Assembly (NCBI GenBank): GCA_937928765.1
Contig: CALFVX010000001.1
Location: 86,744-150,743 of the forward strand
DNA length: 64,000 bases
Direction of reading: 5' to 3'
Source of the DNA: an uncultured Endomicrobiia bacterium
GTDB taxonomy: Bacteria; Elusimicrobiota; Endomicrobiia; DTEH01
The translations under genes were made by a program, and so were the position numbers. Positions 2 through 55,062 of this stretch are shown here, one piece after another. The notes under the pieces were generated by a model. That model worked only from the letters and a program-made list of their open reading frames with translations. It was not told the DNA's origin and did not search any database. Each line of letters starts with the position of its first letter. Positions within the stretch are counted from its first letter, which is position 1.

Positions 2-3000
2 ACAAAGAAACCTGAATCTGTAGTTGCATTCTCGCCATATCCTGAAAATGTTAAATTGAACACATTGCCTGTGATAAGCGGTACTGCTGATGATTACCCT
101 GATTCGTCTGAAGCAATTTATGCAACAGGTGTATCAACATCTGAAGTAGCAGGCGGGTTCAACCAAGGTGTACAGATTGCGTTAAGACAACTTGCGTATC
201 CATCAACATACTATGGCAAGGCAGCACCTGCTGGATGGAATAAACAAGAACCTGAATGGATATATGTCCATTATTCGTCAATAACAAAGAGATGGTATAT
301 AGAAAACCAAGAACTTGGTACATTTACAGGTCCAGGTGACCCACCTGATGGCTGGTATCAAATAATACCGAGAGCAAACGATAAAGCAGGTAATTATGAG
401 ACACTGTTTAACACAAGAACTTTCTGCTGGGATACAACACCGCCAAGTTCGTTAACTACATATCCATCAAGTGGCTCATATGTTGCTTCAATCACACAAA
501 TCACAGGCACCGCAAATGAAAATGTTGCAGGTATTGATAAAGTATATTTATGGTTAATTCGTGGTAGTGATAACAATTACTGGACAGGTTCTAACTGGAG
601 CACGACTGAATCGTCATTCACAATACCGCTCTCAGGCGAAGTTGGTATCTCAACTTGGACTTTGAACACTTCACCTACACTAACAGACGGTGTAACATAT
701 TTCATAAGAACAGTTGGTAAAGACCTTGCCGGGAATATACAACAAACATATACAGAGATAAAATTTATTTGCGATTTACGTGGTCCTGACGTAGTTGTTC
801 GTACTCCTGACGATTCTACACCGAATGACCCTGTAACACCGAGGTTGTCAGTTTTAACAACAATCTCAGGGACTGCTTCTGATACAGGGATAGGGACAAT
901 TTCAGAAGTAAGATGGAGGATAAAACATCTACGGCTTGGTCAATACTGGGATGGCGATGGATATCTTATCACGGATTATAATATTCCAGAGACAAACAAA
1001 GAATCAGCATGGTTTGTTGTTAAGACAACAGTTACACCTGAATGGTCAGTTTGGTTTGGGACATTCTCTTTCCTTACTGATGAAAGATACCAAATAGAAT
1101 TTAGGGCAAAAGATACATTAGGCAACTACACTATTTCTTATGCTACAATTTCGTTCACATTTGATACAAATAGGCCGCAATCAGGTGTTTCATTCCCTGC
1201 TAATAATTCGTTCGTAAAAACGATTACTGGTGGAATCCAAGGCACAGCACAAGATATGGGTGTAAACTTCCCAGGTTCTGTGCCACAAGTAAGGCTTGCT
1301 ATAAAGAGATTATCAGATGGTTATTGGTGGAGCCATTTTGATTCTACATTCTCAGCGACACAACCGCCACCGCCTGATGGTTGGGTAGGCGTGATTCCTG
1401 TTGCTGGGCAATGGTCATATTCCACTATAACCGATGCACATCTCACAAGCGGTGTTTCGTATTACATTACAACATCTGCACAGGATGATGCAACACCGCC
1501 AAATTTTGAAGGTTATTACCATATACGTTCCTCAACATTTACTTTTGATAACACAGCACCACAAGTTGTAATAACAAGACCGCCAACTACCGCTGTATAT
1601 AATACTATTCCAACAATCTCAGGTACAGCAACTGATAACGCTGCAGGTGTGAACAGAGTAGAAATAAGAATACAGAGGACTTCAGACAATTATTACTGGA
1701 TAGACCCTGACGGTGATGGTGTAGGCAGTTGGGCTGTTTCAGGGACAACAGTGGTACCGTGTAATTTGAGTTTACCTTACTGGTGGTATTATCCTGTTTC
1801 AGGGTTTAACCCACAACATGGTGTGACTTACAAGATAGAAGCGCGCGGGTTTGATGTTGCGTTCAACACTTCAGCATGGACAACTGCAAACCAGTTCACT
1901 TATGATATTGATTACCCATCCGCTGCTGTTATTTCACCTGCGAACGAATCTTTTGTTAACATCTCGCCAGTGACAATCTCAGGAACTGCGTTTGATTCAA
2001 TCTCAGGTGATCCTTTAGCAAGTGTAGAAATTGCTATTGCATCTAATTCTGTTTCACCTGCGGGTTCGTGGTGGGATGGAACATCGTGGACAGCACAGTC
2101 AGAAGTATGGTTTTCAACTTTAACTTATAACTCATTACCTGAGCCGGATGAATGGACTTATCAAACACCGCCGCTGGAAAATGGTAAGAAATACTTCATA
2201 AGGTTAAAAGTAACAGACCGTGCCGGGAATCAAAGAGTTATTGATTCAATTAAGTTCACTTACGATGCTACTCCACCAACTATTGTCCTGCTAGAACCTC
2301 AAGGACACGGACCAAATAACAATTATGAAGGTCCTAATACTTTACCTTTAATCTCTGGTACTGCAACTGATACTTCACCAGGTGCTGTTAGTTCAGTCCG
2401 TGTATGGATAACAACAAACCCAGCTTCGCCATGGTACTGGAACGGTTCAGGCTGGCAAAATACTGAGTACTATTTCAATGCAGATATTTCAGCATTGCCA
2501 ACTTGGAAACTTACGAATTTTGGTACACCGTGGCAACATAATGTCACATTCAGGGTTATAGCAAAAGCGTATGATACAGCAGGTAACCCTTCAGGTGAAG
2601 CATCAAAAGATTTTGTATATGATTCCGTTGTTCCTGTTTCTACAATCACTTATCCAGCTGCAGGTATGAATATAAGAAGTTTGACAGTGATTTCAGGGAC
2701 AATGTCTGATGCTCAATCTGGTGTTTACAAAGTAAGATGTGCAATAAGACACCCTGCAGGAACGTTCTGGAACGGCAGTGCGTGGGTAAGTTATAACGAA
2801 TCAACTTGTTGGCTTGAAGCAACAGTTTATCCGTCAAGTTATGTGTTCACGAATTTACCTACGAGTTGGGATGATAGAACTGTATATAGATGTTATGTCC
2901 GTGCTGAAGATAATGTTAACAACAACGAACCTGCACCGTCAGACTGGCTTACTTCCGGTACACCGTTTAGAATAGATTATTCATCACCAACTTCAGTTGT

Positions 3001-6000
3001 CTCGGATACGGTCCTGCAATCCGGAACAACGGTATATTTACAAGGATATATAACCTCAGTTGCAGGTACTGCAAGCGATTTAACTGGTGGTTCAGGTGTT
3101 TCGGAAGTTAGAATTAGAGTAAAAAGAGATGACGGACTTTATATGAATGCTGCAGAGAACGACTGGACCACGGATAGTAGTTTCAACTTACTTGCTTCCG
3201 GTGCAGAAAGTTGGAATAAAGTGTTCACTTCGCCACAAATGTTTGAAGATGGGCATTGGTATGAGATAGAATCACAAGCAAAAGATAAAGTTGTGCCAAC
3301 AGCGAACACGCAAACTACATATACACCTGCACGGTTCTATGTAGATAAATCATCACCAATCGCAAGTATAACTTATCCCGGTAATACCACACCTAACGAT
3401 TTACATTACAACTGGACAAGTAATTTCACTATCTACGGACCACGACAGGATGTGTATCCATTCCCGAATGCTATACCGAGCGGTGTGAACAAAGCAGAAA
3501 TAGCAATAAGAAGGTTATCCGATGGTAAATATTTCACATCAGGCGGGTTCACAAGTGATATCTCAAGTTATCATGTATGCTCATTATGGGAATCATCCTG
3601 GACTTATACATTCAATTACACATATTTAACTGATAACACTTCTTATACAATCACAGCACGGACATATGACCGTGCAGGGAATACTACACAAAGTCAAGAC
3701 AATTATTTCGTTTATGATATATCAAGTCCAGTTTCAGTAACAGTTCTTCCTCAAGAAGGTGTTTTGTATGACAATAACACATTATCCACAATTTCAGGCA
3801 CAGCGGAAGATTTAGTTGTTGGCGGGTTAGGTAGAGTGGTTTCAGTTGAAATGAAACTCTGGCGTTCACCTTACGGTGCGAACGATTACTGGACTGGTAC
3901 AACCTGGGGTGCTGAGACATGGCTTAATACAACAGGTGGGTATAGTGGTACAACTTACTACTGGTATTATAATGTTACCAATGTCTTATGGAATGTTGAC
4001 GAAACTGAATACAAAGTTATCACGAGGGCAAAAGATAAAGCAGGTAATGTTGAAATTTCACTACCAACACGGACATTCAGGTTTAGGCCACTTTTGCCAA
4101 ATTCATATATAACAGTCCCATTAAACAACAAATATTATTCAACACTTACTGCTATTGCAGGTACAGCACAATATGCTGAATCTGTCCTTGTAGCAATAGT
4201 TCGTAAATCAGACGGATATTACTATAACGGAGCACAAACATCACCATATTGGACTGATACTGAAACCTGGCTTGTTCCTGAAGGGACATCAACATGGTCA
4301 TATAACATACCTGCTGGGGACAACTTATGGGTTTATGGTTCTTCATATACTGTAAGAAGCAAAGCAAAATCTTTATACGGTGACAGATGGCAAGGTGACC
4401 CTGGACAGTTGCCTATCACTGAATCTTTATTCTGGTTTGATAACCAGCCACCAACATCGGTAGTTAACTCGCCGTCTGCAGGTGTTCCACATTATAACGC
4501 TACTACATTGCCTACAATCTCAGGTACTGCAACTGATGAACTTGCAGGTGTGTCAAAAGTTGAATATTCTCTTCAAGATTTAACCCGAGGGACTACTTTC
4601 TGGAATGCTACAATTCAAGATTGGGTTTCAGTAGTAGAATACTGGAACCAAGCAAACTGGACACAGCCTGTCTGGAGCACATATATACCTGCAGGTTTCT
4701 TCACTGACGGCCATCGGTATCGTGTAAAATCTAAAGCATACGATAACACTTTGCCATCACCGGGAATAATTGAAGTGCCACAGGCAGGTAGAGATTTCAT
4801 ATTTGATATCTCAAAACCTACTGCTACTGTGACAAAACCGCCTGCTGGTGGTGTAGCGTCACCGTTTACCTATGATGGACAAACAGTTTACGCATATAAA
4901 TCATCGTTCACATTTACAGGTGATATGCTTGATCTCGCACCAGGTATACCTGAGAGAACACAGATTTATATCTATAATTTTGTTGATAATGTATATTACA
5001 CAGGTTCTGGCTGGCAAAGTGAGTTAGTATGGATAAGTACAGAAACTGCCGGGTTTACGATTTATACTTCATCTTGGGCATATGATACATCAGCATTATG
5101 GACAGGTGCAAGTGGTAAAAAGTTCTTAATAGTTTCAAAAGCAAAAGATAAAGCAGGCAACTGGCAAGAAAATTATGTTGTTGGAACTTCATCAGTACAG
5201 TTCATATTTGATACCCAACCACCACAGACAACTATCACATTACCATCACAACCTTCAGGTAGTGCTACAAACAATTTAGCCAATATCTCAGGTACTTCAA
5301 CTGATGCAACACAGGCATACTATGTAGGCACAAATTCGGTCAAACTCAAGATTTACGATGCTACAGCTGGGTTGTGGTACCAAGGTGGCGGTATCTGGGG
5401 GACAGAAGTAACAACACTTACAGCCTCAGGGATTGACCCGTGGAGTTATTCCGGTGTCAACTGGACAACTGATAGGAGATACTACATCTATCACTGGGCA
5501 ATAGATAAACTTTCTAACGAAGGTGTACCAAGTTCGTATGTTATCACTTACGATACCACACCACCAGTTTCACAAATTACATATCCGCAGGATGGCGGTA
5601 ATTACAAAAGTTTACAAGTTATCTCTGGGACAGCAAATGCTGAGTTAAGCGGGTTAAGTGAAGTAAGGATACAGGTATCATCATGGACTGGCAGTGGTTG
5701 GTATGTTTTAAGTGGCTATGATTTTGTTTCTGTGAACAATGTTTGGACATCTTCGTGGTCATGGACAAGCGGTTTACCTTTATGGGTTGATGGTGTAACT
5801 TATAGATTAATCTCGCGTGCAGTTGACCGTGCAGGGAATCAAGAAGTTGTGTTGTCCACTGTAACATTTAAGTACGACACAACTCCGCCAAGTATTGTAA
5901 TTTCCGTCCCTGAAAATAATAAATGGTACTCATCCAATTCTGGTGCGAACAATTTGGCAACAATATCAGGTACTTCATCTGATTTAACCAGCGGTACTAC

Positions 6001-9000
6001 TATGGTTTATATAAGAGTATTGAATATTACCGATAATGTTTGGGTAGTAGGTGATGCTAATAATTTCGTTGTTGCATCAGGAACAAATCCTTGGACTTAT
6101 CCATCACCTGCTTATGTTGACGGCTGTAAATATGTAGTTGAAGCAAAAGCAGTTGACAACGCAGGCAACTTTAGTAATGTTGTATCTTCAACATTTACCT
6201 GGGATACTACATTGCCAAAAATAACTTTGCAAAAACCTGATAGTGATTACCATAATTATTTACCTACGATTTCAGGTACTGCCTGGGAAGTATCTGCGTC
6301 CAATGGTAAACCTGAAAAATCGTATCTATACAAAGCACAATTTGCAATAAGACGTATAACCGAACCATCATACTGGTGGAACAATACTGTTAAAGATTTC
6401 AACCTTGATTCGGAGACATATTACGATGCTACAGTAAATGTTGTTCCCGGTAGTTTAGAAGGTAGTTGGTATGTAACAGGTGTTGATACACCAACTTGGA
6501 TTAACGGTTATGAATATCTTGTTAAAGTTCGTGTATTTGACCGTGCAATGAATGTTTCCACTGAGACAATAACTTTGAAACAGTTTATATACGATATCAC
6601 AAGACCGACTTCAAAACTCTTAGAACCACCGGAGTCAGCGTCTGTTTTAGCAAGAAGAAGTTTACCGACAATTTCAGGTACTGCTGAAGATACTTCACCT
6701 GGTAAAGTTGGACAAGTTGAACTGAGGATCCAGGATACGATTGATATCACTTACTGGTCACCTTCGGCTAATGATTTCATTAATTTCCCAAATCCAGAAG
6801 ATGCATGGTTTGTTGCGTTGACAACTTCGGCACAATGGACTGTCTGGGTTTCAACATTTAACGAACTCAAATGGACCGAAGGCAAGATTTATAGGATTGA
6901 ATGTCGTGCTCGTGATTTAGCAACAAATTATGACAATGTATATTCAACAACATATTTCAAATGGGATAAAACACCGCCTGATTCGGTTGTTAATTTCCCT
7001 GAGAATGGCAAATCATATCGTCAATTGACAATTATATCCGGCACAACGATAGACCGTGCAGGCGCAGCTGTAGGTGTTGGTATTTCAGATAATACAAAGG
7101 TTAAAGTTGCTATAAGGAATAATCAGACAGGTCTGTGGTGGGACGGGTTCTCATCGTTCAACCAGCCCGAGGCTAACAAATGGCGTAATTCAACAAGTTT
7201 AGTAGATTTAGGCGGTTCACAATATAGATGGGAATATACAGGACTAATAGATGCATACCTTACATCTGGTGTAAGTTATTATATCCAGGTATATGCTGAA
7301 GACCGTGCTGGTAATATTGAAACGCTTGTTGGTGAATGCACATTCTGGTTTGACAATGCAGAACCTGATTCGTTTATACAACTTCCTGAAGATGTGTCAC
7401 CACATAAGTTCTATACCGCACTACCGACAATCTCAGGTACATCTTATGATGCTACAGCAGGGGTTGAAAAAGTTGAACTACATATAAGAGATTTGTCAGC
7501 TGATAAACCATGGCTTGGGTCAGGTTCAGGCTGGGGTACTGCAGGAACTACAAGTTATGTATTAACAACTTTAAGTTCTGCAGGAACATTCTGGTATTAT
7601 GTTGATGTTCCGCAATGGGAACAAGGAAAACGGTATAGAATCTCATCTCGTGCAACAGATAAAGTTGTATATCCTTCAGGAAATGTTGAAACTACAGAAT
7701 CTATCCGCTATGTTGTTATAGAATCTTCAGCACCACGAACTTGGTTTGTGTTCCCATCGCCAAATTATGATACTAAATATAACTCATTACCAACCATAAC
7801 AGGTACCTGTGTTGATTACCCATTAAGTCCGTTATATAAATCCGATATACAGCGTGTTGAAGTTTTAATCCAGGATTTAACTTATCCTTCTACTTATTGG
7901 AACGGTACAGTATGGCAGGAAGGCGAACCTGCAGATTGGCCTGATGCAACTGTTAGCGGTGTAACAGAAGTAAAGAACTGGCAGTATCCATCACCCACAT
8001 GGACAACTGGTAAAAAATACAAAGTTACAGCACGGGCACAGGATAATTTAAATGTTTATCAAACACCTGTGAGTTCTACAACTTTCATATTTGATACCAC
8101 ACCACCGGTATCTTATGTTACAAGACCACAGGAAAATGTAGGGTATAATTCAACAACGAATATACTTTCTACAGTATCAGGCACAGCATGTGATATAGAT
8201 CCTATAGGTCAAGGTAATTATGCTGGGTTTGGCAGTGTTAGTATAGCAGTAAAAGTTATTGATTATCCTGCTGTAGGTCTTGTAAGATGGTGGGAATGGT
8301 ATGGCTCAAGTGGCGGGTTTACAGCAACAGTTGAGACCTGGCGTCCTTGCGAGATATATTCAGTTATAGGGAACACTGTGTCTTGGAGGTTCACAGAGAT
8401 TTCATCCACAGCATGGTTGTCACCATACAGTTATCAAATCAAGACACGTGCTGTTGATGCTCTCGGTAATACTGAGACACCACTGCCTGTAAGAAACTTC
8501 TCAGTTGATGCTACACCACCAACATCGGTTATTAACTTCCCAGTCAATGGGCAGAGTTATACAAATGTAACATCAATCTATGGTACAGCAGAAGATATAC
8601 CTTCAGGTATAAGTAAAGTAGAGATACAGATCTTGCGCGAGGATACGAACCAGCAATGGGCAGGTAGTGCTTACGGCTGGCTACCTGCAGGACAATCCAC
8701 ATGGGTTGTGACGAATTTAACTGCTGTATATCCAACATCAGCAACCTGGCAATACACAGATGTACCACTATGGCCAAGTGGTGTGTATTATCAAGTTCGT
8801 TCAAGAGCAACCGATACTGCAGGTAACCCTGAGACACCGTCAACCTATGTAAGGTTCTCAATTGATAATCTTGCACACCTGCCAGTTATCCAGAAACCTG
8901 AACATAACACAGGCTATACTGGCAATACAGGTGCAAAACCCTTAACTACAATTTCCGGTACTGCAACAGACGATTTCTCAGGTATTTACGAAGTAAGGAT

Positions 9001-12000
9001 AAGAATTCAAGATTTAGTTACTGGCAACTACTGGGATGGTCAATCGTTTGCAGGGACTGACCCTAACGCTTCAGCTGTATGGCGTGTAGTTTATTCAACT
9101 GACCAAGCAGGAGTTTTAGGTCCTGTTAACTGGCAACTACCACATCCTGTTGGCGGTTCAGTGCCAACTTGGACAAGTGGTAAAAATTACAATGTAGTAG
9201 CAAGAATCCAGGATTATGCTGGTAATATCTCAACATTCACTGTAGCTATTAATTCTAACACTTTCACAATAGATTCATCACCACCTGAGGTTGTTATCAT
9301 AAGACCGTTATCACAACCAACTACACCTGTTTATTCATCAATGGCAACAATTTCAGGTACTGCTGCTGACAAACCAGAAGCACCATTGTATAATTCAGGT
9401 GTAGCACAGGTATGGGTTAAGATCTATTATCTTTTAGACGGGAACACATACTACTGGAACGGGACAGAATTTTCTTCATGGACATATCCTACTGATGGTA
9501 TCCTTGCTACAGGGACAACTTCGTGGATATACACTGCAGGGTTCAGTTGGTCTGATGGAAGATTATATTATGTCCAAGCACGCTCTAAAGATAACGCTGA
9601 CAACTGGTCAAACTGGGTAACCAATACATTCATATTTGATTCTGTAGCACCACCAGCACCTGTGATAAATTATCCATTACAACTTAGAGCATATCGTGAT
9701 TTGCCACAGATAACAGGTACAGCAACTGATGAACATTCAAGAATTTATAAAATAGAGATCTATTTACAAGATGTTACTCGTGGGACAACTTACTGGGATA
9801 ACATACAAAGTACATGGGTTGCTTCAGTTACACCTGTATGGTTTGAAATCGGAACTTACGATTCACAGAATGTAGTTTGGCAATGGAATATACCATCTCC
9901 ACAGACAACTCTAACTGATGGTCATACTTATGATATCAAAGCACGTGCATACGATGCTGCTAACAATTTAAGTGGAGAATCAAACATACGAAGGTTCTTC
10001 CAGGATACTTCATATCCTTATTCAGCAGTTTTACCACCACCTGCAAACAATGCTTATTATCGTGAAATAACAACAATTTCAGGGACAAGTTATGATGATA
10101 CTGCAGGTGTAGAGACAGTAGAGATTGGTCTACAGCGGTTAGATAACAACCAATGGTGGAACAATACATTACAAGCATGGGATGTTAACCCGCAATGGAT
10201 ACCTGCAACTGTAGGAGGTAGTGTTGGTGATAAAGTTCGTAGCTGGAGTGTTTCCATAGCAACCTCAGCATGGGCACATGGGTTATCTTATAGATTAAGA
10301 ACACGGGCTAAAGATTATGTTGCTAACTTTACTCATTACGAAGGTGGCACTGCTGACGGCGTAATAAGAGTTGAACCTTTCTATTGTGATAAAGAAGCAC
10401 CACTGTTTGCTACCGTAGTGCCACAAAATAATACAAGGTATAGAGCATTACCTACAATCTCAGGTACTGCGACTGATACACCTGCAGGTGTTAACCTTGT
10501 TGAAATTGCAGTGTATCGGCTTGATTTTAATGATTACTGGGACGCTTCTGTAAACGACTGGAAGGGTGCACCTTCAAATATCTGGGATATAACTAATCTT
10601 ATTGGCTCAACCTGGACATATACAAAGATTGCTGATAACAACAAATGGACAAGCGGTGCAAGGTATCATATATATGTGCGGGCAATAGATAACGCAGGAA
10701 ACATCACACCACATACCACAACCTGGGTACAACTTGACTGGGCACCACCGGTGTCAAGAATTACCGAGCCAGGTCCGGGTGATGTGGTCTATAGAAATAT
10801 CGTAATACCTACAATCTCGGGTACAGCACAGGATATAACCCCTGGAACAGGAATATCAGAAGTAAGGATAAGAATACAACGTTCCGACGGTGCCTGGTTT
10901 GACGGTTTAGCATGGTCAGGGACTGAAAATACATGGTTGCTTGCTGATGAACTTATCCCAGGAACACCGTATCAATGGCGTAAACTAAATATGTCAGATA
11001 AATGGACTTCTGGGTACTCTTACAAGATAAACTCGCGTGCTAAAGATGCTGTCCAGGTACCACCAGATGAAAATAAAGAAATTAATTTCTCAACAGTAAC
11101 TTATTATTACGATACAACAGCACCAACTTCAAAAATAAACCTTCCTGAAAATAATGCCTGGAGAAATACTTTGACACAAATCACAGGTACTGCTACCGAC
11201 CCAACGATTATATTAGGTGGTGCGCCATCTAACATAGACAAAGTAGAAATTTCAATCCAGCGTCTATCCGACGGATATTATTGGTACGGCTCTTCGTTCT
11301 CTGCAGGAACAGTTCATTGGGCAACAACTACTATCACTGAAGTTCAACCAACTTCGTGGACTTTCACATATTCAATGCTTGATTCCTACTGGACTGATAA
11401 CACATCTTACACAATTGTATGTCGTGCGTATGACCGTGCAACGAACCTTGCCTGGGGGACAACGAATTATTTCATATTTGATACTTCAGCACCAACTTCA
11501 GCAATAACTTACGGTGGTCCTGTGGACGAAGTTAACAATCCAATTGGATACTTACCAAATTATCCTGTAAGAACAGTGCTTACAATTATCACAGGGACAG
11601 CTGCGGATTACGGTTTAGGTAAACCTGATAAAATACAACTACAGGTTCGTCGTATTAATCCTACACCGGTTAAATATCTTGCAAACGATTTAACATTTGT
11701 AGATTACACAACCTGGGTTGTTGTAAATGTAGGTCCTGACGGTATCTGGAATTTTAACACTTCAGCAGTAGGATGGTTATCGTTCTCAGATTACGAGATG
11801 CAATCCCGTGCTATAGATAAAGCAGGAAATGTTGAACCTGTATGGTCTACTGTTAGAACATTCAGGATGGAACCTGAACGTGCAAGGTCGGTCATTACAT
11901 CAGTTGAAAACGGTAAGTTCTATCAATCAGTTTCTGCTATTGGTGGAACAGCAACACAGAATCCTTTAACTGAACGGCTGGATTTAAGAATAAAACGTGA

Positions 12001-15000
12001 AACTGACGGATATTATTGGTCAGATTCTTTAGGCAGTTGGGTTAACTTCTCAACCTGGGTTGTAATTTTATCGCCTACATTACCTAACTGGTCATATTCA
12101 CATCCTAACTTACAATTTGTCCACGGGTCAAGTTATACCGTAGCATCAAAAGCATGGAGATTATCACCACTTGTTGCTGAATATGATACCGAACCGCCAG
12201 GACCACCACCGAATGTAATGCCAACATTCTGGATTGACAATGTTGCACCGTCTGCAGGTATCACTTTACCAAATAAAGCATATGTTAATAACTTACCGAC
12301 AATTTCAGGTACTGCAACAGACGGATTATCCGGTATAAACAGAGTAGAACTCTATATCCGTGACACATTACAAGGTCCTAATACTTATTGGTCTCAATAT
12401 TCACAACAATGGGTGAATTATACTACAGCATGTATACCTTCATATTCCGCAGGTGAATGGATATTCATAGGTTCAACACCAACATGGCAGAATTTAACAA
12501 CTTACGGGTTAAAAGTAAAAGCATACGATAACTCAATTCCTGCTAACACTTACGAAACTTCAGAATTTATCTTCACTTATGATTTAGTCCCTCCTACTGC
12601 AACAATAACTTCACCGGTACACGGCTCAACTATGTCTTTTGTTAATGTGATTTCAGGCAATTATTATGAACTACCGACACCACAAGTTAATTCAATTGAT
12701 AAAATAGAAATAAGGATACAAGCACTTGGTGGTTCACAAGCAGGCAGGTACTGGCGTGATTCACCAGCAGGATGGACTCTGTCAGAAACCTGGAACTCAA
12801 GCACAGAGACTGTAAAAATTTATCCCTCTTCATGGACATATATCAAGCCCACAGCACTTAACTGGGAACACAATGTTTGGTATTCAATAGTAGTCCGTGC
12901 TAAAGATATTGCAGGTAATCAGCAATCTATATTTAATCTCGGTATATCATCAATTACATTCCTATTTGATGCTCAACCGCCGATAACTAATGTCACAACG
13001 CCTGGACAGACATATCTTAATGCTCCACCAATCAACTTCACAGGTAATTTAACTGATGAACTCTCAGGTGCTGCAACCGTATATCTGAAGTTATATCTGT
13101 GGCTACCCGATGGAACAACATATTACTGGACAGGTGTTGCATGGTCTTCAACAGTTGTTGATGCTACAGCTATACCTACGGAAGAACTCGCACCAAAATA
13201 TTCACCACCGTCAGCTGTGTGGTCACATCCGTTCCCTGCCGGACTGACATTCGCTTCAATTGGCGGATATACAGATAAGAAATATAACCTCAAAGTCCAA
13301 GGTATAGACGGTGCACAACCTTATGGAAACATAGAACCCTGGGATGCAGGATTTGATTTCTATATAGACACAACACCTCCAAGGTCTTATATTGGATATC
13401 CACAAAATAATGCTAAGTTGAATTCATTAACTTTGATCTCAGGTACTGCTAACGGTTTCTATTCAGGATTACAAACTGTTGATATACAAATCTCTTCATG
13501 GACAGGTACAAGTTGGTCAATTGTACAAGATTGGACATCAGTAGATAACGATACTTCAACGCCGGGTGATATAACTGTTGTCTGGAGTAAAACATCAGGG
13601 TTACCAACATGGCAGGATGGTGTGAACTACAGAATAATTTCTCGGGCAAGAGATAATGCTGGGAATTACGAAGTTGTATTATCTACTGTAGAGTTCTTGT
13701 ACGATATCACACCGCCTGATGTTTATATCCAGAACCCGCCACAAGGTGTGTATTCATACCGTGGTCCTTCTACATCTTTAAATCCTTTGCCAACCATCTC
13801 AGGGACTGCAAGTGATACTTTGACTGATATTGTAAAAGTTGAGATAAGGATTAAAGATAACACTGACGGATTATATTACGATGGTTCAAACTGGGTGAAT
13901 AACCCGAGCACATGGGTTGTATGTACAGGAACTTCGCCATGGATATATGTTTCACCAGTATGGGAAAATGGTAAAGAATATATAATCAACGCGCGTGCAG
14001 TTGACAGCGCAGGGAACTTAACTCCAATGACAACGGCAACATTCTTGTTTGATTCAACATTGCCGACAATTTCATTAAAAGACCCGAACGCTGAGTTTGA
14101 ACGTTCATTACCTACAATTTCAGGTACTGCTCAAGATTCAGACCCTGACGGTGCTGGACCTTTGAAGAGGTCAGGGATTCAAACTGTCCAGGTAGCAATT
14201 TATAGTTATACTGATGGAAGTTGGTGGAACAATACTGCAAAAGTGTTCAATATTACAAACGAATCTGATGCTTATTATCCTGTCAGTGGCCCTTCACCAC
14301 TACCTGTTGACTTTGTCAACTGGTATGTAACAGATGTTGATACACCAACATGGATGAATAACCAGAGGTATAAAGTTAAATGTCGTGTTATAGACCGTTC
14401 AGGAAACATTTCTACAATGACTGTGCTTGAACAGATATTTGTATACGATATTTCGCCACCGGATTCTATTATCCGTTTACCTGAATTAAGTTATTACAAC
14501 TACTTACCAACAATCTCTGGTACATCGCAAGATACAAATTCAGAAGGTGAAATACAAAAAGTTGAAGTCCGTGTGTGGAATTATACATTAACACAATTTG
14601 TTAATCCTCAAGGTGAAGGGGTCGGAACAAATCCTGATACTTCATGGTTTGTCACACAGACAACAACATCATGGCAGATATGGTTTAATCCGTGGACGTT
14701 TACAAGCGGAACTAAATACAGAATAGAATCTCGTGCACAGGATAAAGCAGGAAATTATCAAGTGAATTATTCAACCAAATCCTTCAGATACGATACCGAG
14801 ATACCGAATTCATATGTCACATTCCCTGCTAATGCAACATTTAGAAGAACATTGCCAATTATCTCAGGTACAGCAATAGATATCCCACCTGTAGCAACAG
14901 GTGACGGTTATGGCGGTAGTGGTCTTGCACAAATACAGGTCGCTATACAGAATAAGATGACAGGTTTGTGGTGGGACGGTTCAGGATTTAACCTTTCAGG

Positions 15001-18000
15001 ACCTGCAGGGTTTAATTATAGTGGTTCATTATCACCTGAACCCGTAACTTGGGATTATACAGGACTTCCAGAAACTGCGTTACAAAGCGGTGCTTCATAT
15101 TATATCACTTCAAGAACAAGAGATAATGCTGCTAACCAAGAGGAATTCTTTAACATCCGTGGGTCAACATTTGTCTGGGACAATACTCCGCCAGTAGCTT
15201 CAATACTTATCCCTGCTACACCTGAACAGTTCTATTCATCATTACCAACTATAACAGGAACCTGTGCTGACTTACCGCCACAACAAGGGTTACTTTCAGC
15301 AGGAATAAGGACTGTTGAACTTACAATACAAGATATAACACCTTATGTACCTGAAACAGATAAATACTGGACAGGGAATAGTTGGACTGGTGTCACACCT
15401 ACTACATTTACTGCATTAACAACTGATAACTGGCAAACTTGGTACTCAACTGCTGTTCCGAATACTGCATGGATACAAGGGCATAGATACAAAATTAAAG
15501 CATGGGCATATGATAATTCATTGCCACTGCCAGGTAACCAGCAAACACCAACCGAATCGTATTTCAAATTTGAATCTTCAGCACCAGTAGTTTCGTTCAC
15601 TAATATCACACATAACAATTATTATAGAACATTACCACAGATTTCAGGGACAGCAGTTGATTACCCATTAACACCATTGTATCGTTCCGGAATGCAAAAA
15701 GTAGAAGTTTTGATAAAAGACAATCAAGCCAATAAATTCTGGGATGGCACATACTGGCAATCTTATGAACCTTTAGATTGGCCTGATGCAAGTTTTGTCT
15801 CAGGTTATAATCCACAAACTGTTGTAGATTGGTATTTTAACTCACCAAGTTATGAAAGTGGTAAGGATTATAACATCACAGCAAAACCTGTTGACCAACT
15901 CAATATTTCTGGTTTATCTATAACTTATACAATCACTTACGATACTCATCCACCAGTTTCAAATATTGTTCGTCCTGAAGAAAACAAAGGATACTCTACA
16001 GCTGACCCGTTAACAACAATAAGCGGTATTTCCGAAGATTATATGCCATATGTGGGATTTAAATATTCAAACATAACTTCTGCTAATGATATCCTTGTAA
16101 CACTTCGTCTTGATGAACCACCGTATGACCCGTTAACTCCAAGTTCACTTGATAAATGGTGGAAATGGTGGGGTTCTTCAGGTTCTTGGGTTTCGGCATC
16201 AAATTATTCCGAGTCAGATGTATGGTTCCCTGTGGATACAATTTATCAACAGATTGATAATGTCTCTTATTGGAGAATATACGAGAAAGTACCTGGTAAT
16301 AGCACAGGGTCGGATAACTGGGTTTCAGGCAAAATCTACCGTTTCCGTGTGAAATCACAGGATAGAGTGGGTAATGTTGAAACTGTAGTTTCAACACGCA
16401 CATTCTCAGTTGATATCCAACCGCCAGTATCACGTTCTGTAAGACCGCAAGATGGTGGGTTCTACAACGCCACTACAAATATATTGACTACATTGTCAGG
16501 TACAGCAATTGATGATTTGCCCGATAATGTGAAACGTACCGATATAAGGATAAGATATGAAGAAGGTGGTAATGTTTACTACTGGAACGGTTCAATCTGG
16601 CAGCTTGGTGTTTCAAGCTGGCTTGCATGTGTCAATTTAACACCTGGTGGTACTTGGTGGGCATATATACCAGGTGTTTCAGGTAGCACAGTCGCATGGG
16701 TCTCAGGTAAAACATACTATATGAACACAAAATCAATAGATAACGCCGATAACGTTGAGTTGGCATTTTCAACAATTTCATTCCAGGTAGATTCCTTACC
16801 GCCATCAACAACAATACAGCAACCTGTCCATTTAGCAGGTTATTCACCATCACAGCCATTGCCGAGGTTTGAAGGTATCTGTTCTGATGATTTCAGCGGT
16901 GTAAAGAATGTAAAGATAGCGCTTCAGAGGTTATCCGATGGTTTATGGTGGCAAGGTGGTGCTGCTTGGGGTTCACAGGTGTGGTTTGATCTAACAACTG
17001 CAAATGGTTATTTATCTTCAGGTGCCACATGGTGGTATTATCCTAAACCAACATTTACAAGTGGGCAACGATATATGTTAATAGCTTACGGGATTGATAA
17101 TGCTGACAATCCACAAACTGAATTCATAGTTGGTGTATCATCAAACATTTTCTCTTATGATGATATACCTCCAACAAGTGGTGTAGTGATACCTGCTAAT
17201 GACGAAGCGTATTCAACTAACAAACCGTTAACTACAATCTCAGGCACGGCTGAGGATGATTTTAGTGGCGTAACCGGTGGCAAGATTAAGATATGGTTCC
17301 TGGGAGATCAAAATGATTGGAGTTTACCCGGTGGTACCTCTTACTACTGGACAGGTGTAGTTTGGAGTTCAGTTCAGGTTTATGAATTGAATGTATCTTC
17401 ATTAACTTCTGACTGGTCCTGGTGGTATTATACAGCAGCATTTGATTGGAAGAATGGTAAAGAACATTATGTTAACATAAGAATGCGCGACCTTGCAGGT
17501 AACTGGCAGACAATAGGTGTAACTAATAAGTTCAAATATGATACAACATCTCCAGCTGTTACAATTTCAGTTCCACAGCCAGCTTCATTCTGGGGTCCTG
17601 CAAATAATTTGCCTACGCTCTCAGGTCAAGCAACAGATGAATTCTCAGGTGTATCCCGTGTATTGATACAGATTAAAAACGAAACCGATTCAACATACTG
17701 GAATGGTTCAGAGTTCACAGCACATTCTACAAATTATGTATTAGCAACCCTTGTCTCACCGGGTGCGTTATCTACAGAATGGCGTGTTATATTCCCAACA
17801 CAATCCTGGATAACTGATAAATATTATTCAGTTCTGGCTAAGTCCTATGATAAAGCAGAAAATGTTTCAACTGATGCACAGAATACATTCACTCATGATT
17901 CAACCTTACCGAGAACTGCGTTCTATATTCCATCACAACCATTCTATAATTACTTGACAACAATCTCAGGCACTGCATGGGAAGAAGGACCACCTGCACC

Positions 18001-21000
18001 CGCAAGGTCAAGATTAAAAGAAGTTCGTGTTGCTATACAAAATGACCCAACAATAAACAATCTCTGGTGGGATGGTTCAGGGTTCAATTCTGTCTCACCT
18101 GTATGGTTACTTTGTAGTGGCACAATTGAAGGTCAGGATTCGGCAAGCTTCTATTTCACAGGGTCAACACCTACCTGGGTTGATGGGAAAACATATCTGG
18201 TCCAAGCAAGAGCACAAGATAGAGCACTTAATTATCAATCTCCAATAACTACATTCTCGTTCACATACGATATTACAAAACCGACCGTGAGATTAAAGAT
18301 ACCTGATGAAGGTTCAGGATATAGATATAATTTATTACCTACAATTTCAGGTACTGCTTTTGATACTTCACCAGGACAATTAGCATCTGTTTATTTAAGA
18401 ATAAAAGAACAAACAGGACTTTATAGATATTGGAATAACAATACACAACAATTTGATAGTGACCTTCCTGCAGAATCAGCCTGGTTCTTAGCAGTTACAA
18501 CAGTTACACCTCAGTGGACAATATGGTTTGCTACATTTACAACATTACCATGGCAGGATGGTATTTCATACTCAGTTGAAGCAAAATCTTATGATATGGC
18601 AACTAACTTGTGTGTGAGTTATTCAACAAGTGTATTCACATACGATATATCTTACCCACACTCATATGTAGTACTTCCTCAAACAGGAACATATAGAAGA
18701 CAACTTACGCAACTAACAGGTACTGCAACGGATATCGCCGGTGGTACTGTTACAGATGTTAAAGTTTATGTCCAGAGATTAACCGATGGCAGATGGTGGG
18801 CAACTGCAGGTAACTGGGTAACAGTTGAGACAGCGCTGCCGATAACACAACTTGTGGTTATATCGCCTGGTGTATGGGAATGGCAACGAAACGATACTGA
18901 ATTAGCAAGTTATTTAACAAGCGGTACATCATATTATGTCTACACTCGGGCATTTGATAACGCAACAAACATAGAACCTTTACCCGGTGCTGGTCCTTCA
19001 GTGTTTGTCTGGGATGTGACATCACCAACTTCTACTGTTACATACCCACAAGATGGCGGATATTATAATACATTATCAGTGATCTCAGGAACACAGGTTG
19101 ATGTTGTCCCGTTTGCTGGTGCACGTGTAGCCGGAGTTCCTGCAATAACAGGTGCAGTAAAAGTTTCAATACAAGATTTAACTTATCCATCAACATACTG
19201 GAATGCTTCGTTATCGCAATGGGTAGAAACCGAAGTGTTTAATGATGCGGTTGTATATCCTTCATCCTGGGTATTCACTAACCTTCCAACATTTGAAACT
19301 GGAAAAAGATATAGAATAAGTTCTCGTGCTTATGATGCAGCGTTGCCTTCCGGTAATGACCAGTATACACAATTCCCACAAGCAGGGTACACAATTTTAT
19401 TTGATACTAATCCGCCAATAGCAACTGTGACCTATCCTCCAAATAATTCAATCATAAACTTTGTTCCAACGATTACAGGTCAGGCATCAGACCAACCAAC
19501 ATTGAATTCTGGTATAGATAAAGTATTTGTAGCAATCCGCGAGATAGAGCCTGTAGGTTTATGGTGGGATCCCGCAACTTCGTCATTCACTTCCACAGTA
19601 CCTATTTGGTCAACAGCAACTTGGATTTCAGGTCCACCAGCAAGATGGGAATGGCAAAATTCAGGATTAGTTTTAAGAGATGGATACAGATATTATGTAC
19701 AATGTTATTCAAGGGACAGAGCTGGCAATGACGGGCCAACTTCAACACCGTTACTATTTAGATACGATACCACACCACCATCTGTTGGCATCACATTACC
19801 TTACAAATCTTGGCATACTGCTTTAACCACTGTATCAGGTACTGCTGTTGATAGTGGTTATACAGGTGCTTCAATAAGCGAAGTTAAAGTAACATATCAA
19901 CATAATCCGCCTGGAGGTTTATGGTGGGACGGGACAACATTTAGTCAAGGTACAATAGAGAACGCATATTGGGAAACAGCAGATATTTCTTCACTACCTA
20001 CATGGTGGCGTAGTCCTACACCAAACTGGGCAACTGGTGAGACTTACAAAGTTGTAGCAAAGGCAAAAGATTTAGCAGGGAACTGGAGCACAATTTCGGA
20101 AAAAATATTCGCTATTGATGTAACGCCACCTTTGTCTGCTGTTACATTACCACAGTCTGGTAATTACTATAGCAGTGTCTCACAAATTAGTGGAACTTGT
20201 TACGATGCACACAGCGGAATTGAAAAAGTTGAAATAAGGTTAATAAATGTAACAGACAACTTAGGTTGGGATGGTAGTCAATGGGTTGTTGGGTTATCAA
20301 GTTGGGTTGCGGTTAACAATGTGTATCAATCAAGCTGGAGTTATACAATATCAGTACCATTTACAACTGGCAAGAGGTACGAAGTAACAAGCAGGGCATG
20401 GGATGTCGCAGGTTCATCTGAAACTGTAAGTGAGATACCTACATATGATATTTACTTTATGTACGACATAGACGCGCCAGTTTCACAAATTCAGCAACCA
20501 TATCAACCGTCAGGTTCTGAAGTTAAATACTATCGTTATCTACCAATAATCTCAGGAACAGCAGCTGATGTTCCAACAGAACCTGCAGGTTCAGGTATTG
20601 ATGAAGTTAAAATCGCTATTCAGGATAAAACCAGCGGTTTATGGTGGGGCGGTTCTGCGTTTGACCAAGAAACACCTTGGTGGGGTACAGTTGTTACCGG
20701 TTCAACTTCTTGGAACGCTTCGTTCAGTGATTCCAACTGGGTTGATGGTAAGACATATTTAGTTATAAGCAAAGCATATGACAAAGCAATACCTCGGAAT
20801 GAACAGACAACATTTAATGTTGTTGTTAATTCTGTGACATTTATTTGCGATAAATCCACTCCTACATCAAGAATCACATGGCCGATTGATTTCTTGGTAA
20901 CAAATAACCTCACTACAATTTCAGGAACTTCACAAGATGTTTTAGTTTTAGGTAATGCAAGCGGGATACAGAAGACGGAAGTTTCAATATATTGTGTTTC

Positions 21001-23560
21001 ACCTTCAACTGGCTGGTGGAATGGGACAGATTTTACGGGAACTTCACAACAATGGTTTGTAGCAACTAATCTAACACCTGCTAACACATCCTGGATATAC
21101 ACGGGCTTTGCAGGTGCACTTATAACTCATTCAACTTATGTTGTATATTCACGCACATTTGATAATTCACTTCCTACACCTGGGAATTACGAAACAACCT
21201 ATAGTTCAAAAACTTTTGTATACGATGTTACAAAACCTACTTCTGTGATTAACCTTCCAACTTTAGCATATTACACTAACAGGCCTGACGCATCGCCAAT
21301 GTATCAACTTCCGTTGATAAGCGGTACTGCGTTTGACCGGTTTGGTATTTCAAAAGTTGAAGTTTTGGTTCGTGATTTAACTTCAGGAACTACTTACTGG
21401 ACAGGGAACAGTTGGGTAGATTTTGTTCCTTCTGACTGGCCTGACGCTTCTGGAACAAGTTTGTGGCAGTTTACTTCAACACCTACCTGGCAGTCAGGTA
21501 GACAATATAGAGTTTATACAAAAGCAACTGACATTGCAGGAAATGTTGAAGACCGTGGTCCTGCGTTACCATCTGTTTATGACAAAACCTTTATATTTGA
21601 CAACACACCGCCTGTATCACGAGTAACATATCCTCAAAACGGTGGTTATTACAACTCACCGTCAGTACTTTCAGGTACTGCACAAGACCCAACACCGGAT
21701 ACTGGGAATAATAAATCTGGAATTATGTATGTGAAAGTGCTCATTAAACGGCTTGATACTAACCAGTACTGGGACGGGACAGGTTGGAGTTCTACAAAAC
21801 AAGAGTTAGATACTGTCTGGGTACAACAAGAAAGCAGGTGGTACAGGTCAACAGGGTTACCTAATTGGGAAGATGGTGTAAGTTATCAGATACAATCTCG
21901 TGCATATGACAACGCTACAAATCCTGAAGAAGAACCGTTACATCCGGGTTCTACTTGGACTTGTGATAAAACTTCGCCACTTGTATACTTACTTGCTCCA
22001 GTTCATAGTTTAACCATGCCACCGAATAAATATTACAATACCCTTGCTACAGTTTCAGGTACTGCTTCTGACCAAAACCCACTTTCACAAGTAGAAGTTA
22101 GAATTTACAGTTATATAGACGGTGGCTGGTGGGATGGTAGTTCTTGGAACATGGGTCTTTCGCCTGACGATGCATGGTTTGTTAGTTCATCAACTACGAA
22201 CTGGAGTTTATGGTATACAACATTTACAGCGTGGCAGTCAGGATATGTTTACAAAGTTGAATCCAGAGCTAAAGATGTTGCAAACAACTATTCTACTGAA
22301 TATTCTACATCTATCTTTAGATACGATACTACAAAACCTGAAACTTATGTTTCCTTCCCGCCGAATGGTGTGTATATTGCTGAGTTAACTACTATCTCAG
22401 GTACAGCAAAAGATTTACCTGAACCTTCTGGTGCGTATTATGGTCCATCAGGGCTTTATAATGTAAGGATTGCTGTAAGAAATAACCAGACAGGTTATTG
22501 GTGGTCAGGTACAGGATTTACTGCGGGAAGTTTAACTGAACGGCCAGTATCAGGTCTTGCAAGTTGGATATTTACAGAAATAAATACTCAATCGTTACAA
22601 TCAGGCGTGTCGTATTATATCACAGCACGGGCTGAAGATAACGCTGGTAACCCACAAGCAAGTATTACTTCACCTGGCAACCGTGAAGATTGGTACAACA
22701 TCCGCGGTTCTACATTTATTTTTGACAACACACCGCCTGTGTCAAGAATAGAATTTCCTGCTAACAACGGTGCATATAACACAGCGTTTACTATTATTTC
22801 AGGTACTTCAGTAGATTTAACTGCCGGGGTTAATAAAGTAGAAATTTCTATCCAGAACCTTACTGATTCAGGAACACCATATTGGAACCACAACTTAAAC
22901 ATCTGGGAATCAAACGCTCCTCAAGAAAGATGGATAACTATTTCAACCTCAGCCCCCGGTGGACAAATAGTCAACTGGGTGTACCAAAATGCGTCAATAT
23001 ACTGGACCGATGGCAGGATATATCGTGTGCGTGTCCGAGGATATGACAATGTTACAATACCGCAGGCAAATGTAGAAACTGAGCCAAATATATCATCTCA
23101 TACATTTATCTACGATATTACAAAACCTACTTCTACGGTGTTACAGGTTCGTGTAGGTGGCGAATGGAGAAACATTGAAGAGTTATATTTTGAAAATGTG
23201 GAATACATTGGCGGTTCTGCAGCAGACAATGCTCATCCGTTAAACAACAGTGGTATAGTGCCAAACAGCGGTGTAAAAATATGTCTTCTCCGTGACGAGA
23301 ACGAAAACGAAATAATTGATACTAACGGTGCTGACCTTATCTGGGACTTTGTAAACTCTACCTGGACTGCTTATTATGGTAGTGTAGGTATGAACAACTT
23401 AGGTGTGTGTACAGGCGGTGAACCCTCCTGGCAGTCACCTGCGTTCTCTACTGCTACTTGGAAATCAGGTAAACTTTATTTTGTAAGGTCGCAAGCTACT
23501 GACCGTGCAGGGAATGTTCAAGATTATGATGTTTCAAACTGGAAGAGATTTTATGTCACC
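2..23560 (+). repeat. Block A: about 63 tandem diverged Trp-rich Ig-like domains (~124 aa each)
   Basis: Manual count of the recurring motif L(P/T)TISGTAxD...VxxVxIxI...(Y/W)WxGxxW...W...GxxYxIxxRAxDxAGN...FxYDxTPPxSxIxxP. The DxAGN and DxTPP signatures are typical of bacterial Ig-like repeats. Confidence 0.9.
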
Positions 23561-53654: not shown

Positions 53655-54572
53655 ATGTTTAAAAAAGCTTTAAGATTAATAATTATCTTATCGATTTTTA
53701 TACTCTTTTGTGTATTATATGCAGATAAATTAGAATATTTGTTGCCAGAAGAATACAAGATATCTGATAAAGATCTAGAAATTATTTTTATAGATGTTGG
53801 TCAAGGAGATTCTACACTAGTTATTACTCCTAATAAGAAAACAATTTTAATAGATGCCCCAGGCATACCATATTGGTCAAAAATATATTCTTTAGAACCT
53901 GCTGAAAATATAGTTTTGGATTATTTATATTCAAGAAATATTAACAAATTAGATTTTATTATAGTTTCTCATCCACACGGAGATCATTTTGGTGGCATGT
54001 TTGATATCTTAAATTCTTTAAAAATAGAAAATTTTATTGATAACGGATATGTGGAAGGTGACCCTAACTATGTTAATTTGTTAGAGATAGTTGATAAAAA
54101 AGAAATTCCTTATGATCAGTTAAAAGAAGGTGATTTTTTAGAAATAGATAATGAAGTTTTTATTAAAGTATTTTTTCCACCTAAAAAAGGCTTTATCTTT
54201 GAAGGAGCAAATAATTCATCGTTAGTTTTTAAATTGTTGTATGGAAATTTTTCTATTTTGTTTACAGCAGATATTGAAGTAGAGGTTGAAAATTATCTTT
54301 GTTCAAAATATAAAAAAGAAATAAAAAGTGTAGTTTTAAAAGTACCACATCATGGTTCAAGAACTTCTTCAAGTAGTAGGTTTATTAAAACTGTATCTCC
54401 AGAAGCAGCAGTAATAATGTGTGCAAAAAACAATCCTTTTGGTCATCCACATCAGGAAGTAATAAGCAGATATTTGAAATTTAAAATAGAACTTTATAGA
54501 ACAGATATAGATGGTGATATAAAAATTTTGACTAACGGAAAACAATATACAATAATTCCAAATTTAAAGTGA
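53655..54572 (+). CDS. ComEC/Rec2-type metallo-beta-lactamase-fold hydrolase with N-terminal signal/anchor
   Basis: FIDVGQGDS, SHPHGDHFGG, NNSSLV, FTADIE, KVPHHGS, NPFGHPH and YRTD motifs; no multi-TM competence domain. Confidence 0.88.
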   Translation: MFKKALRLIIILSIFILFCVLYADKLEYLLPEEYKISDKDLEIIFIDVGQGDSTLVITPNKKTILIDAPGIPYWSKIYSLEPAENIVLDYLYSRNINKLDFIIVSHPHGDHFGGMFDILNSLKIENFIDNGYVEGDPNYVNLLEIVDKKEIPYDQLKEGDFLEIDNEVFIKVFFPPKKGFIFEGANNSSLVFKLLYGNFSILFTADIEVEVENYLCSKYKKEIKSVVLKVPHHGSRTSSSSRFIKTVSPEAAVIMCAKNNPFGHPHQEVISRYLKFKIELYRTDIDGDIKILTNGKQYTIIPNLK

Positions 54573-54673
54573 TTATTTTGTTTTTAAACTATTGAAATTT
54601 TTTTTAATAAATTATAAAAAATTAAAAATATAGTATTTTTTAATAACAAAAATTTTTCAACCAAATTTTTTAT

Positions 54674-54746
54674 GGGCCCGTAGCTCAGCTGGCAGAGCAC
54701 CGGCCTTTTAAGCCGGGTGTCGAGAGTTCGAATCTCTCCGGGCTCA
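54674..54746 (+). tRNA. tRNA-Lys (UUU)
   Basis: Acceptor GGGCCCG/CGGGCTC, anticodon arm CCGGC-CTTTTAA-GCCGG, T-arm GAGAG-TTCGAAT-CTCTC. Confidence 0.95.
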
Positions 54747-54762
54747 GTTTTTTGTAGAGCAT

Positions 54763-54837
54763 GGTGGTTGTAGCTCAACCGGATAGAGCACCTGGCTGTG
54801 GCCCAGGTTGTTGCGGGTTCGACTCCCGTCAACCACC
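54763..54837 (+). tRNA. tRNA-His (GUG) with encoded G-1
   Basis: Acceptor G-GTGGTTG/CAACCAC-C (G-1:C73), anticodon arm CCTGG-CTGTGGC-CCAGG, T-arm GCGGG-TTCGACT-CCCGT. Confidence 0.95.
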
Positions 54838-54861
54838 CAAAAAATTAAGCTTGCAATTAAT

Positions 54862-54933
54862 GGGCGGTTAGCTCAGCGGGAGAGCGCCCGGTTTACACCC
54901 GGAAGGTCAGAGGTTCAAATCCTCTACCGCCCA
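54862..54933 (+). tRNA. tRNA-Val (UAC)
   Basis: Acceptor GGGCGGT/ACCGCCC, anticodon arm CCCGG-TTTACAC-CCGGA (one C.A mismatch), T-arm AGAGG-TTCAAAT-CCTCT. Confidence 0.93.
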
Positions 54934-54964
54934 GATTTAAAATGCAAATTTTAAAAAATTATGT

Positions 54965-55040: not shown

Positions 55041-55062
55041 TATTTTATAAAGGAGAAGTTTT

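Follow-up and report, generated by a model that had tools for sequence, protein, structure and literature searches.

A probable ancient intragenic duplication in the immunoglobulin-like stalk of a giant protein from an uncultured Endomicrobiia bacterium

In a 64,000-nucleotide (nt) stretch of DNA from an uncultured Endomicrobiia bacterium of the phylum Elusimicrobiota (contig CALFVX010000001.1 of assembly GCA_937928765.1, hereafter G000), which is referred to as the window, a single open reading frame (ORF) occupies positions 2-45724 of the forward strand, on which all parts of the gene described below lie, and encodes 15,240 amino acids (aa). It is open at its 5' end and forms the 3' part of one giant gene, the domains of which raise a question: why are units that stand 21 places apart more alike than immediate neighbours? 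A preliminary description of the window had answered with a titin-like super-repeat, i.e., a periodicity of 21 domains (about 7.8 kb). As set out below, the offset probably records one ancient intragenic segmental duplication in the immunoglobulin (Ig)-like stalk of a giant fibre protein, itself probably located at the cell surface, and no repeating period was detected.

The window corresponds to C1:86744-150743 of the G000 assembly (1,537,029 bases in 47 contigs), and the full ORF extends over C1:74403-132467 from an ATG at C1:74403, giving 58,065 nt, 19,354 aa, and a 3.78% share of the 1.54-Mb genome. Block A of this gene consists of 88 tandem Ig-like domains of ~122 aa each, as located with a hidden Markov model (HMM) trained on the giant protein itself; 25 of them lie upstream of the window and 63 within it (positions 2-23554), the latter in the same number and with the same numbering as in the preliminary description. 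Window domains are labelled W1-W63 and full-gene domains F1-F88, so that Wk equals F(k+25). The 63 window domains fall in aa 1-7851 of the window protein, and one weak stray match at aa 9950-10034 was dropped. Recovery of all 88 by one HMM indicates a single domain class without any pattern of the Ig/Fn3 kind. The assignment is also supported by structure prediction and structure search (see below) and by Pfam at the whole-protein level, where the first 5,000 aa match the bacterial Ig-like group 3 families Big_3_2, Big_13, Big_3_3, and Big_3_4 with 65.2, 65.0, 44.2, and 32.6 bits against gathering cut-offs of 23.3-27.3, although no individual stretch passes alone; the second 5,000 aa of the window protein match no Pfam family.

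Resemblance at an offset of 21 domains is evident from short motifs upward. The eight motif pairs quoted in the preliminary description are all in place, at measured offsets of 7764-7854 nt: TDNTSYTI (nt 3629 and 11393), GSSYTVxSKA (4337 and 12125), SGTAN (5624 and 13439), SSWTG (5678 and 13493), EVVLSTV (5843 and 13670), VDTPTW (6482 and 14336), DYPL[ST]PLY (7814 and 15659), and RP[QE]EN[VK]GY (8123 and 15971). A further motif, FWxDN, has an additional third copy at nt 7343. Self-comparison of the undivided protein by BLAST returned the self match only, and the protein was compared in 300-aa chunks instead; the strongest off-diagonal then lay at +2585 to +2617 aa, close to the predicted 2,600 aa, and joined aa ~1008-3000 to aa 3593-5639, with a best match of 44.7% identity over 295 columns (E 1.5e-68).

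In a 63 × 63 matrix of all-against-all global alignments, the mean identity was 30.2% (standard deviation 4.9), and the mean score peaked at offset 21 (127.0), the next offsets listed being 57 (122.7, from six pairs only) and 31 (103.2). Over all 88 domains, the mean score at offset 21 was 106.0 versus a background of 82.1, and 7 of 17 reciprocal-best pairs were separated by exactly this distance. When the domain order was shuffled 5000 times, no single offset gathered more than 5 reciprocal-best pairs, so that a count of 7 or more was reached in none, while the best-offset mean-score statistic was matched in 11 of the 5000. A maximum-likelihood tree of the 88 domains contains 34 cherries, 7 of which join domains at offset 21 with SH-aLRT (Shimodaira-Hasegawa-like approximate likelihood ratio test) values of 86-97 in six of the seven.

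The duplicated block can be delimited as copy 1, comprising W9-W26 (F34-F51; positions 2966-9622), and copy 2, comprising W30-W47 (F55-F72; positions 10733-17524). All 18 pairs of equivalent domains are 31-59% identical, and 14 of them reach z values of at least 2.3 at 34-59% identity, whereas W11/W32, W14/W35, W15/W36, and W24/W45 (z 0.5-1.2) are indistinguishable from background. Paired domains share 39.2% identity on average versus 29.1% for adjacent domains. The pairing had been forecast for about i = 8-27; the offset itself is real, and its limits are i = 9-26. Beyond the block, only W5/W26 stands out at offset 21 (z 2.5). The three domains between the copies, W27-W29 (F52-F54; positions 9623-10732), would be positions 19-21 of the unit if the duplication was strictly tandem; their partners W48-W50 show no specific likeness to them (z 0.9, 0.6, and -0.6), and the expected partner positions now hold a copy of a smaller cassette, described below.

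A search for relatives of the gene with W16-W23 covered 41 genomes from its class, G000 among them; 11 gave matches, and the genes of five relatives were compared. These are G002, from the same genus (18,177 aa, 78 domains); G039, from another family, f9 (17,343 aa, 80 domains); G011, from a third family, f3 (9,742 + 4,193 aa, split by 296 undetermined bases (N) and cut by a contig end, 73 + 14 domains); G010 (12,270 aa, cut at the 5' side by a contig end, 37 domains); and G044 (17,970 aa, 83 domains). Weak stray HMM matches after the arrays were dropped (one each in G002, G039, and G044, 1 + 3 in G011, and three in G010). The four complete genes, in G000, G002, G039, and G044, thus hold 88, 78, 80, and 83 domains. 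Reciprocal-best domain pairs with G000 number 76 in G002, 61 in G039, 48 + 12 in G011 (the 48 in its array G011a), 24 in G010, and 54 in G044, and nearly all are collinear. The relatives of other families (G011, G039, and G044) have both copies in unchanged order, and these arrays carry an offset-21 signal of their own, with 6 of 16 reciprocal-best pairs in G039, 6 of 14 in G011a, and 3 of 17 in G044, where 21 is the second offset; it is the top offset in the other two.

The age of the duplication was judged position by position, by comparing orthologues with cross-paralogues, since a tree of concatenated 8-domain blocks gave a mosaic answer. Against G011a, the orthologue scores above the cross-paralogue at 16 of 18 positions in copy 1 and 15 of 18 in copy 2 (Wilcoxon p 3.6e-6), and against G039 at 10 of 13 and 9 of 13 positions, respectively. 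The exceptions lie in the cassette region, where domains 34-37 of G039, within its copy 1, are closest to F63-F66 in copy 2 of G000; this region also accounts for the mosaic block tree. Because orthologues are closer than cross-paralogues, the duplication is older than the family splits. The DNA agrees: the best matches between copies 1 and 2 are 38 nt at 92% and 137 nt at 69%, the longest exact word is 23 nt, and such scraps rule out a recent event or a doubling by the assembler. The preliminary description had proposed that ~2,600 aa were duplicated long ago with the domain order kept, and this is accordingly borne out.

The same data bear on whether the pattern might have arisen by chance or through faulty assembly of a repetitive gene. 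Repeats are easily mis-assembled, and the N run noted above lies inside the G011 gene; this explanation is nevertheless extremely unlikely, since the observed pair count was never reached by shuffling, the G000 ORF contains neither an N nor a stop over 58 kb, the copies are too diverged in DNA for an assembler to have collapsed or doubled them, and the same architecture is found in four other assemblies.

After the duplication, the arrays did not remain untouched. G002 is collinear one-to-one with F1-F41, mostly at 60-92% identity, and then jumps to F52; about 10 copy-1 domains are absent, and its best internal offset is 11. Counterparts of F42-F51 exist in G011a and G039, and matches in a further genome of the same genus, G001, cover the queried F41-F48, so that the gap in G002 is most simply a loss. 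In G039, F31-F35 and F37 have no reciprocal-best partner and F36 pairs out of line with domain 49, from which the start of copy 1 looks to be missing there. In G044, copy-1 positions 12-17 are replaced by a younger, lineage-specific re-duplication of positions 4-7 (domains 33-36 and 43-46, at 35-52% identity and offset 10), which left the domain count unchanged. Separately, three short runs of G002 are only 33-50% identical to G000 (G002 domains 22-24, 42-45, and 53-56 against F22-F24, F52-F55, and F63-F66), a pattern that suggests local replacement, recombination with a divergent allele, or diversifying selection.

The claim of a period fared less well than that of a duplication. Two iterations of the 21-domain pattern are detectable in the giant protein (F34-F51 and F55-F72), fewer than three, and they do not make a series; the signal stops on both sides. 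Downstream, the offset-21 pairs that begin at F52-F67 all have z values of at most 1.2. Upstream, where the preliminary description had suggested testing for a continued period, the 25 domains contain no in-register repeat, their best partners being scattered. Type profiles for the 21 positions were built from both copies and their orthologues (F34-F75), and as margins within that range are circular, only F1-F33 and F76-F88 were assessed; profiles T18-T20, trained on pairs without specific likeness, have little meaning. The upstream echoes identified in this manner are out of register: F14, F15, and F16 resemble positions 5, 6, and 7 (margins of 20, 6, and 12 bits), F21 resembles position 1 (17 bits), and F28 and F29 resemble positions 10 and 11 (29 and 18 bits).

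Some of this resemblance belongs to a 4-domain cassette with several copies. It stands at W17-W20 (F42-F45; positions 5864-7339) inside copy 1 and at W38-W41 (F63-F66; 13691-15163) inside copy 2, and again at W48-W51 (F73-F76; 17525-19000), at offset 31 from W17-W20 (z 2.2-4.9) and offset 10 from W38-W41. A further copy occupies W58-W62 (F83-F87; 21209-23101), at offset 20 from W38-W42 (z 1.6-5.6, with W39/W59 not above 1.5) and with 3 reciprocal-best pairs, and the F28 and F29 echoes (W3-W4; 761-1531) constitute a partial copy through profiles T10 and T11. An underlying period of 10 or 11 domains inside the 21-domain unit was also considered and rejected, as no pairs at offsets 10 or 11 within F34-F54 reach a z of 1.5 except for F40. 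The array is a nest of block duplications that differ in size and age, one of them very large.

The most probable course of events is therefore that F34-F51, together a block of at least 18 domains, gave rise to a second copy at F55-F72, 21 domains downstream, most likely through unequal recombination between repeat units. In the strictly tandem case the unit would be 21 domains, or ~7.8 kb. The event added ~2,600 aa to the stalk, and the copies afterwards diverged to their present 31-59% identity, while their order and spacing may have persisted because neighbouring repeats without DNA identity provide little drive for further unequal exchange. Smaller later events include several rounds of copying or conversion of the 4-domain cassette, the loss of 10 copy-1 domains in the congener G002, and the overwriting of part of copy 1 by re-duplication in G044. 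In functional terms, these non-identical beta-sandwiches resemble those of giant adhesins and would most likely form a passive extender rather than a periodic ruler.

Several observations weigh against this reading. Pair identity is uneven and 4 of the 18 pairs are at background, for which a single event is the simplest account, short of proof. In the 8-domain block tree, copy 1 of G000 and G011 form a clade (100/100), copy 1 of G039 stands apart from them, and copy 1 and copy 2 each need two changes, which amounts to a mosaic history. The offset is exactly 21 in four of five arrays (G000, G011a, G039, and G044), in at least three families, and survives the internal replacement in G044; between about F39 and F88, the number of domains in G039, G011a, and G044 shows no net change, and such stability could reflect selection on length. 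Domains of the T17 type stand in register at F30, F51, and F72, three in all (z 2.5 and 2.5), and G011a has 3 reciprocal-best pairs at offset 42. Lastly, the putative surface location and extender role are drawn from sequence features and fold likeness.

The first of these points would be expected if the diagonal were composite, that is, if separate smaller duplications or gene conversions had lined up in place of one event. The mosaic block tree, the independent history of the cassette, and the G039 copy-1 domains that are most like copy 2 of G000 point the same way, as do W16 (5543-5863) and W37 (13355-13690), or F41 and F62, which are 59% identical, above the 44-45% between W37 and its orthologues in G011a or G039; this excess may be a trace of gene conversion that took place between the copies once the families had separated. 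A composite origin is still unlikely, given that a single constant offset over 18 consecutive positions in four genomes needs far fewer events as one duplication, and conversions between copies already aligned explain the unevenness without displacing the founding event.

The constancy of the offset could instead be taken to mean that the 21-domain unit is a functional super-repeat, i.e., a module whose length or register is under selection, with partners specific to each position or with a helical or ruler-like period of the kind seen in the titin A-band. Its retention in four arrays, the unchanged count in three distant relatives, the position-specific orthology across family-level divergence (61, 48, and 54 reciprocal-best pairs in G039, G011a, and G044), and the registers at F30/F51/F72 and at offset 42 are in favour of such a module. 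Nonetheless, it is quite unlikely: only two clear copies exist, the upstream echoes in G000 are out of register, the congener G002 dispenses with 10 copy-1 domains and shows offset 11, the start of copy 1 is apparently missing in G039, part of copy 1 is replaced in G044, totals vary from 78 to 88 domains, and a single domain class offers no Ig/Fn3-like pattern. Shared roles of equivalent positions would, moreover, predict correlated conservation, and conservation at copy-1 and copy-2 positions is uncorrelated (Spearman 0.26, p 0.30 for G011a; 0.36, p 0.23 for G039), which counts against a ruler. The kept domain order had been interpreted as a sign of interfaces, a ruler, or a helical register; this is unsupported, as any duplication keeps its order unless rearranged. 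The kept offset and stable count are probably explained more simply by conversion-type replacement, which preserves length, and by diverged repeats barely driving unequal exchange, so that a stable count would be expected anyway once repeats lose DNA identity. There is no sign of a repeating titin-like ruler, and that idea is left without support. It is also very unlikely that selection has kept the 21-domain block as a length module of a surface fibre, in a register older than the separation of at least three families of Endomicrobiia and unbroken even by the replacement in G044; if this were true, the fibre would have a defined higher-order geometry, e.g., two paired or folded-back 21-domain segments, and would be a prokaryotic counterpart to the super-repeat logic of titin.

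The preferred reading, an ancient duplication within a passive stalk, is consistent with the predicted fold. An AlphaFold2 model of W16-W17, for which 62 consecutive domain pairs of the window served as the input alignment, consists of two beta-sandwiches with a predicted local distance difference test (pLDDT) score of 96.1. In a Foldseek search of the Protein Data Bank with this model, SiiE (2yn5) came first (E 2.8e-9, template modelling score 0.57), Fn3-like modules of CbhA were also leading, and further matches included RbmA, titin Fn3 tandems (8bxr, 8bnq), the ice-binding adhesin MpIBP (4p99/5irb), and a LapA-type adhesin (6xi3).

These matches allow the giant protein to be set beside known systems. 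The titin A-band carries super-repeats of 7-domain and 11-domain patterns in many tandem iterations, with an Ig/Fn3 pattern. The likeness to titin is that domains resemble their counterparts in the other copy more than they resemble their neighbours, and that titin Fn3 tandems are among the fold matches; the difference is that the giant protein has two copies, one domain class, and no known periodic partner, and that a congener has lost the register. The best structural match, SiiE of Salmonella enterica, is likewise a long rod of diverged beta-sandwich domains, of non-identical bacterial Ig type. It is far shorter, however, and is exported by a type I secretion system (T1SS), whereas Pfam scans of block C, the C-terminal region of the giant protein, gave no repeats-in-toxin (RTX) or T1SS family, and no secretion genes were present among eight genes scanned on the downstream side only of the giant gene. 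RTX adhesins, such as MpIBP and the LapA-type proteins, share the Ig-like extender fold and a presumed role of holding the distal part off the cell; their extender repeats are nearly identical as a result of recent expansion, in contrast to the giant protein, in which neighbours are ~29% identical and the duplication is older than the family splits.

Arrays of diverged Ig-like modules are also described for Acinetobacter Bap and other variegated proteins, in which module type and number vary between strains (PMC4647330). The authors of that source argue that slippage and misfolding are held in check when modules share little identity, an argument that the 29% mean identity of neighbours in the giant protein fits. 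Bap is an order of magnitude smaller, and a long collinear internal duplication of ~20 modules is not described in the accessible part of PMC4647330. Proteins of at least 10,000 aa are stated to be frequently detected in Elusimicrobiota (bioRxiv 10.1101/2023.11.21.568195), and Elusimicrobia are named as one of the phyla in which huge proteins tend to occur (PMC11573180). For long proteins of Omnitrophota, repeat architectures are attributed to ancient duplication followed by divergence (bioRxiv 10.64898/2026.06.07.730766). The giants that these two preprints describe, from Omnitrophota and other phyla of the PVC (Planctomycetes-Verrucomicrobia-Chlamydiae) group, have different architectures, of HEAT/TPR multi-enzyme and dockerin types, and neither an Elusimicrobiota family of this kind nor a multi-domain collinear duplication is described in the accessible portions of the two preprints. 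A literature search, which covered the accessible text of articles and not their supplements, where such proteins may be listed, found no account of this giant family, nor of any bacterial Ig array with a collinear duplication of ~20 domains.

Outside block A, the giant protein starts with a hydrophobic stretch that reads as signal- or anchor-like. The N-terminal 913 aa (L042 1-2739, equal to C1:74403-77141) match no Pfam or NCBIfam family above cut-off; they contain recurring W.G..W-like stretches, and a protein atlas gave weak leads only, to BNR and beta-propeller clusters with scores of 0.88-0.90, a level of recognition below the usual. Block B (positions 23597-36337) is composed of 32 strong and 2 weaker tandem repeats of ~125 aa with the motif LPGET..PG..GKTG.P..QTAG..F.V.V...D.YWN, for which no Pfam or NCBIfam family exceeds its cut-off; its model consists of beta-sandwiches (pLDDT 94.3), with generic Ig-like structural matches only.

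Block C (positions 36338-45721) is without repeats and is conserved in relatives, its last 900 aa being 77, 39, and 43% identical, and most of it likewise matches no Pfam or NCBIfam family above cut-off. Asp/Asn/Gly-rich motifs recur in it at about 39000-44500, e.g., WYDANNNGLFD and IWKDLNNNGIFD, with a DGDG-rich stretch near aa 14740-14830, and these look like calcium-binding loops. A search with the C-terminal 900 aa gave related loci in 16 records, each bearing the title of an Elusimicrobia, Endomicrobia, or similar metagenome-assembled genome. In close relatives, at three loci (G041:C13, G042:C34, and G003:C170), this region is 75% identical and sits on much shorter frames (3,967, 6,718, and 1,514 aa), and block A had no match in G041 or G042 at E ≤ 1e-40 and none in G003 at E ≤ 0.001; the short-frame genes seem either to join the conserved C-terminal module to stalks of quite another kind or to be paralogues.

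At its very end, block C has a predicted beta-sandwich (45458-45673) with weak, sub-cut-off likeness to FlgD_ig (E 0.0052, 17.2 bits, cut-off 27), to the C-terminal part of PorU (E 2.8e-4), and to the C-terminal sorting domain of the type IX secretion system (T9SS), for which TIGR04183 scored 16.9 bits, below its cut-off of 23. In the G000 genome, TIGR04183 matched 10 ORFs, 5 other ORFs being above the cut-off, and a search for PorU, the one T9SS part sought, gave nothing over cut-off (best 33.1 versus 420 bits). A putative sorting-domain-like tail is thus used in a genome without an obvious T9SS. The eight downstream genes encode DnaJ, an RNA methyltransferase, a radical-SAM enzyme, Obg, two GGDEF proteins, a metallo-beta-lactamase-fold protein, and an ABC ATPase, and are mostly housekeeping; the two GGDEF diguanylate-cyclase genes are adjacent (window 50971-53636), ~5 kb downstream of the giant gene. 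On these features and the modelled folds, the best-supported view is of a secreted or surface-anchored fibre, in which the 88 and ~34 beta-sandwich domains of blocks A and B would serve as a long extender.

The giant gene also differs from its surroundings in composition, with a G+C content of 39.7% versus 26.8% in the rest of the genome. At third positions, G+C is 0.21-0.27 versus 0.10-0.19 in the eight neighbouring genes (window 45901-56166); since it is raised there as well, amino-acid composition alone is insufficient to explain the difference.

A titin-like ruler would be striking if true, and the present data do not support it; the duplication mechanism is ordinary, and the gene is a remarkable instance of it. 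For uncultured Elusimicrobiota, the locus points to a conserved and very costly putative surface fibre that takes up 3.8% of a 1.5-Mb genome. An order of 88 domains that can be traced domain by domain across families is a clean natural record of how a giant repeat protein grows, through block duplications both large and small, the copying of cassettes, and deletions, after which the diverged repeats are stable.

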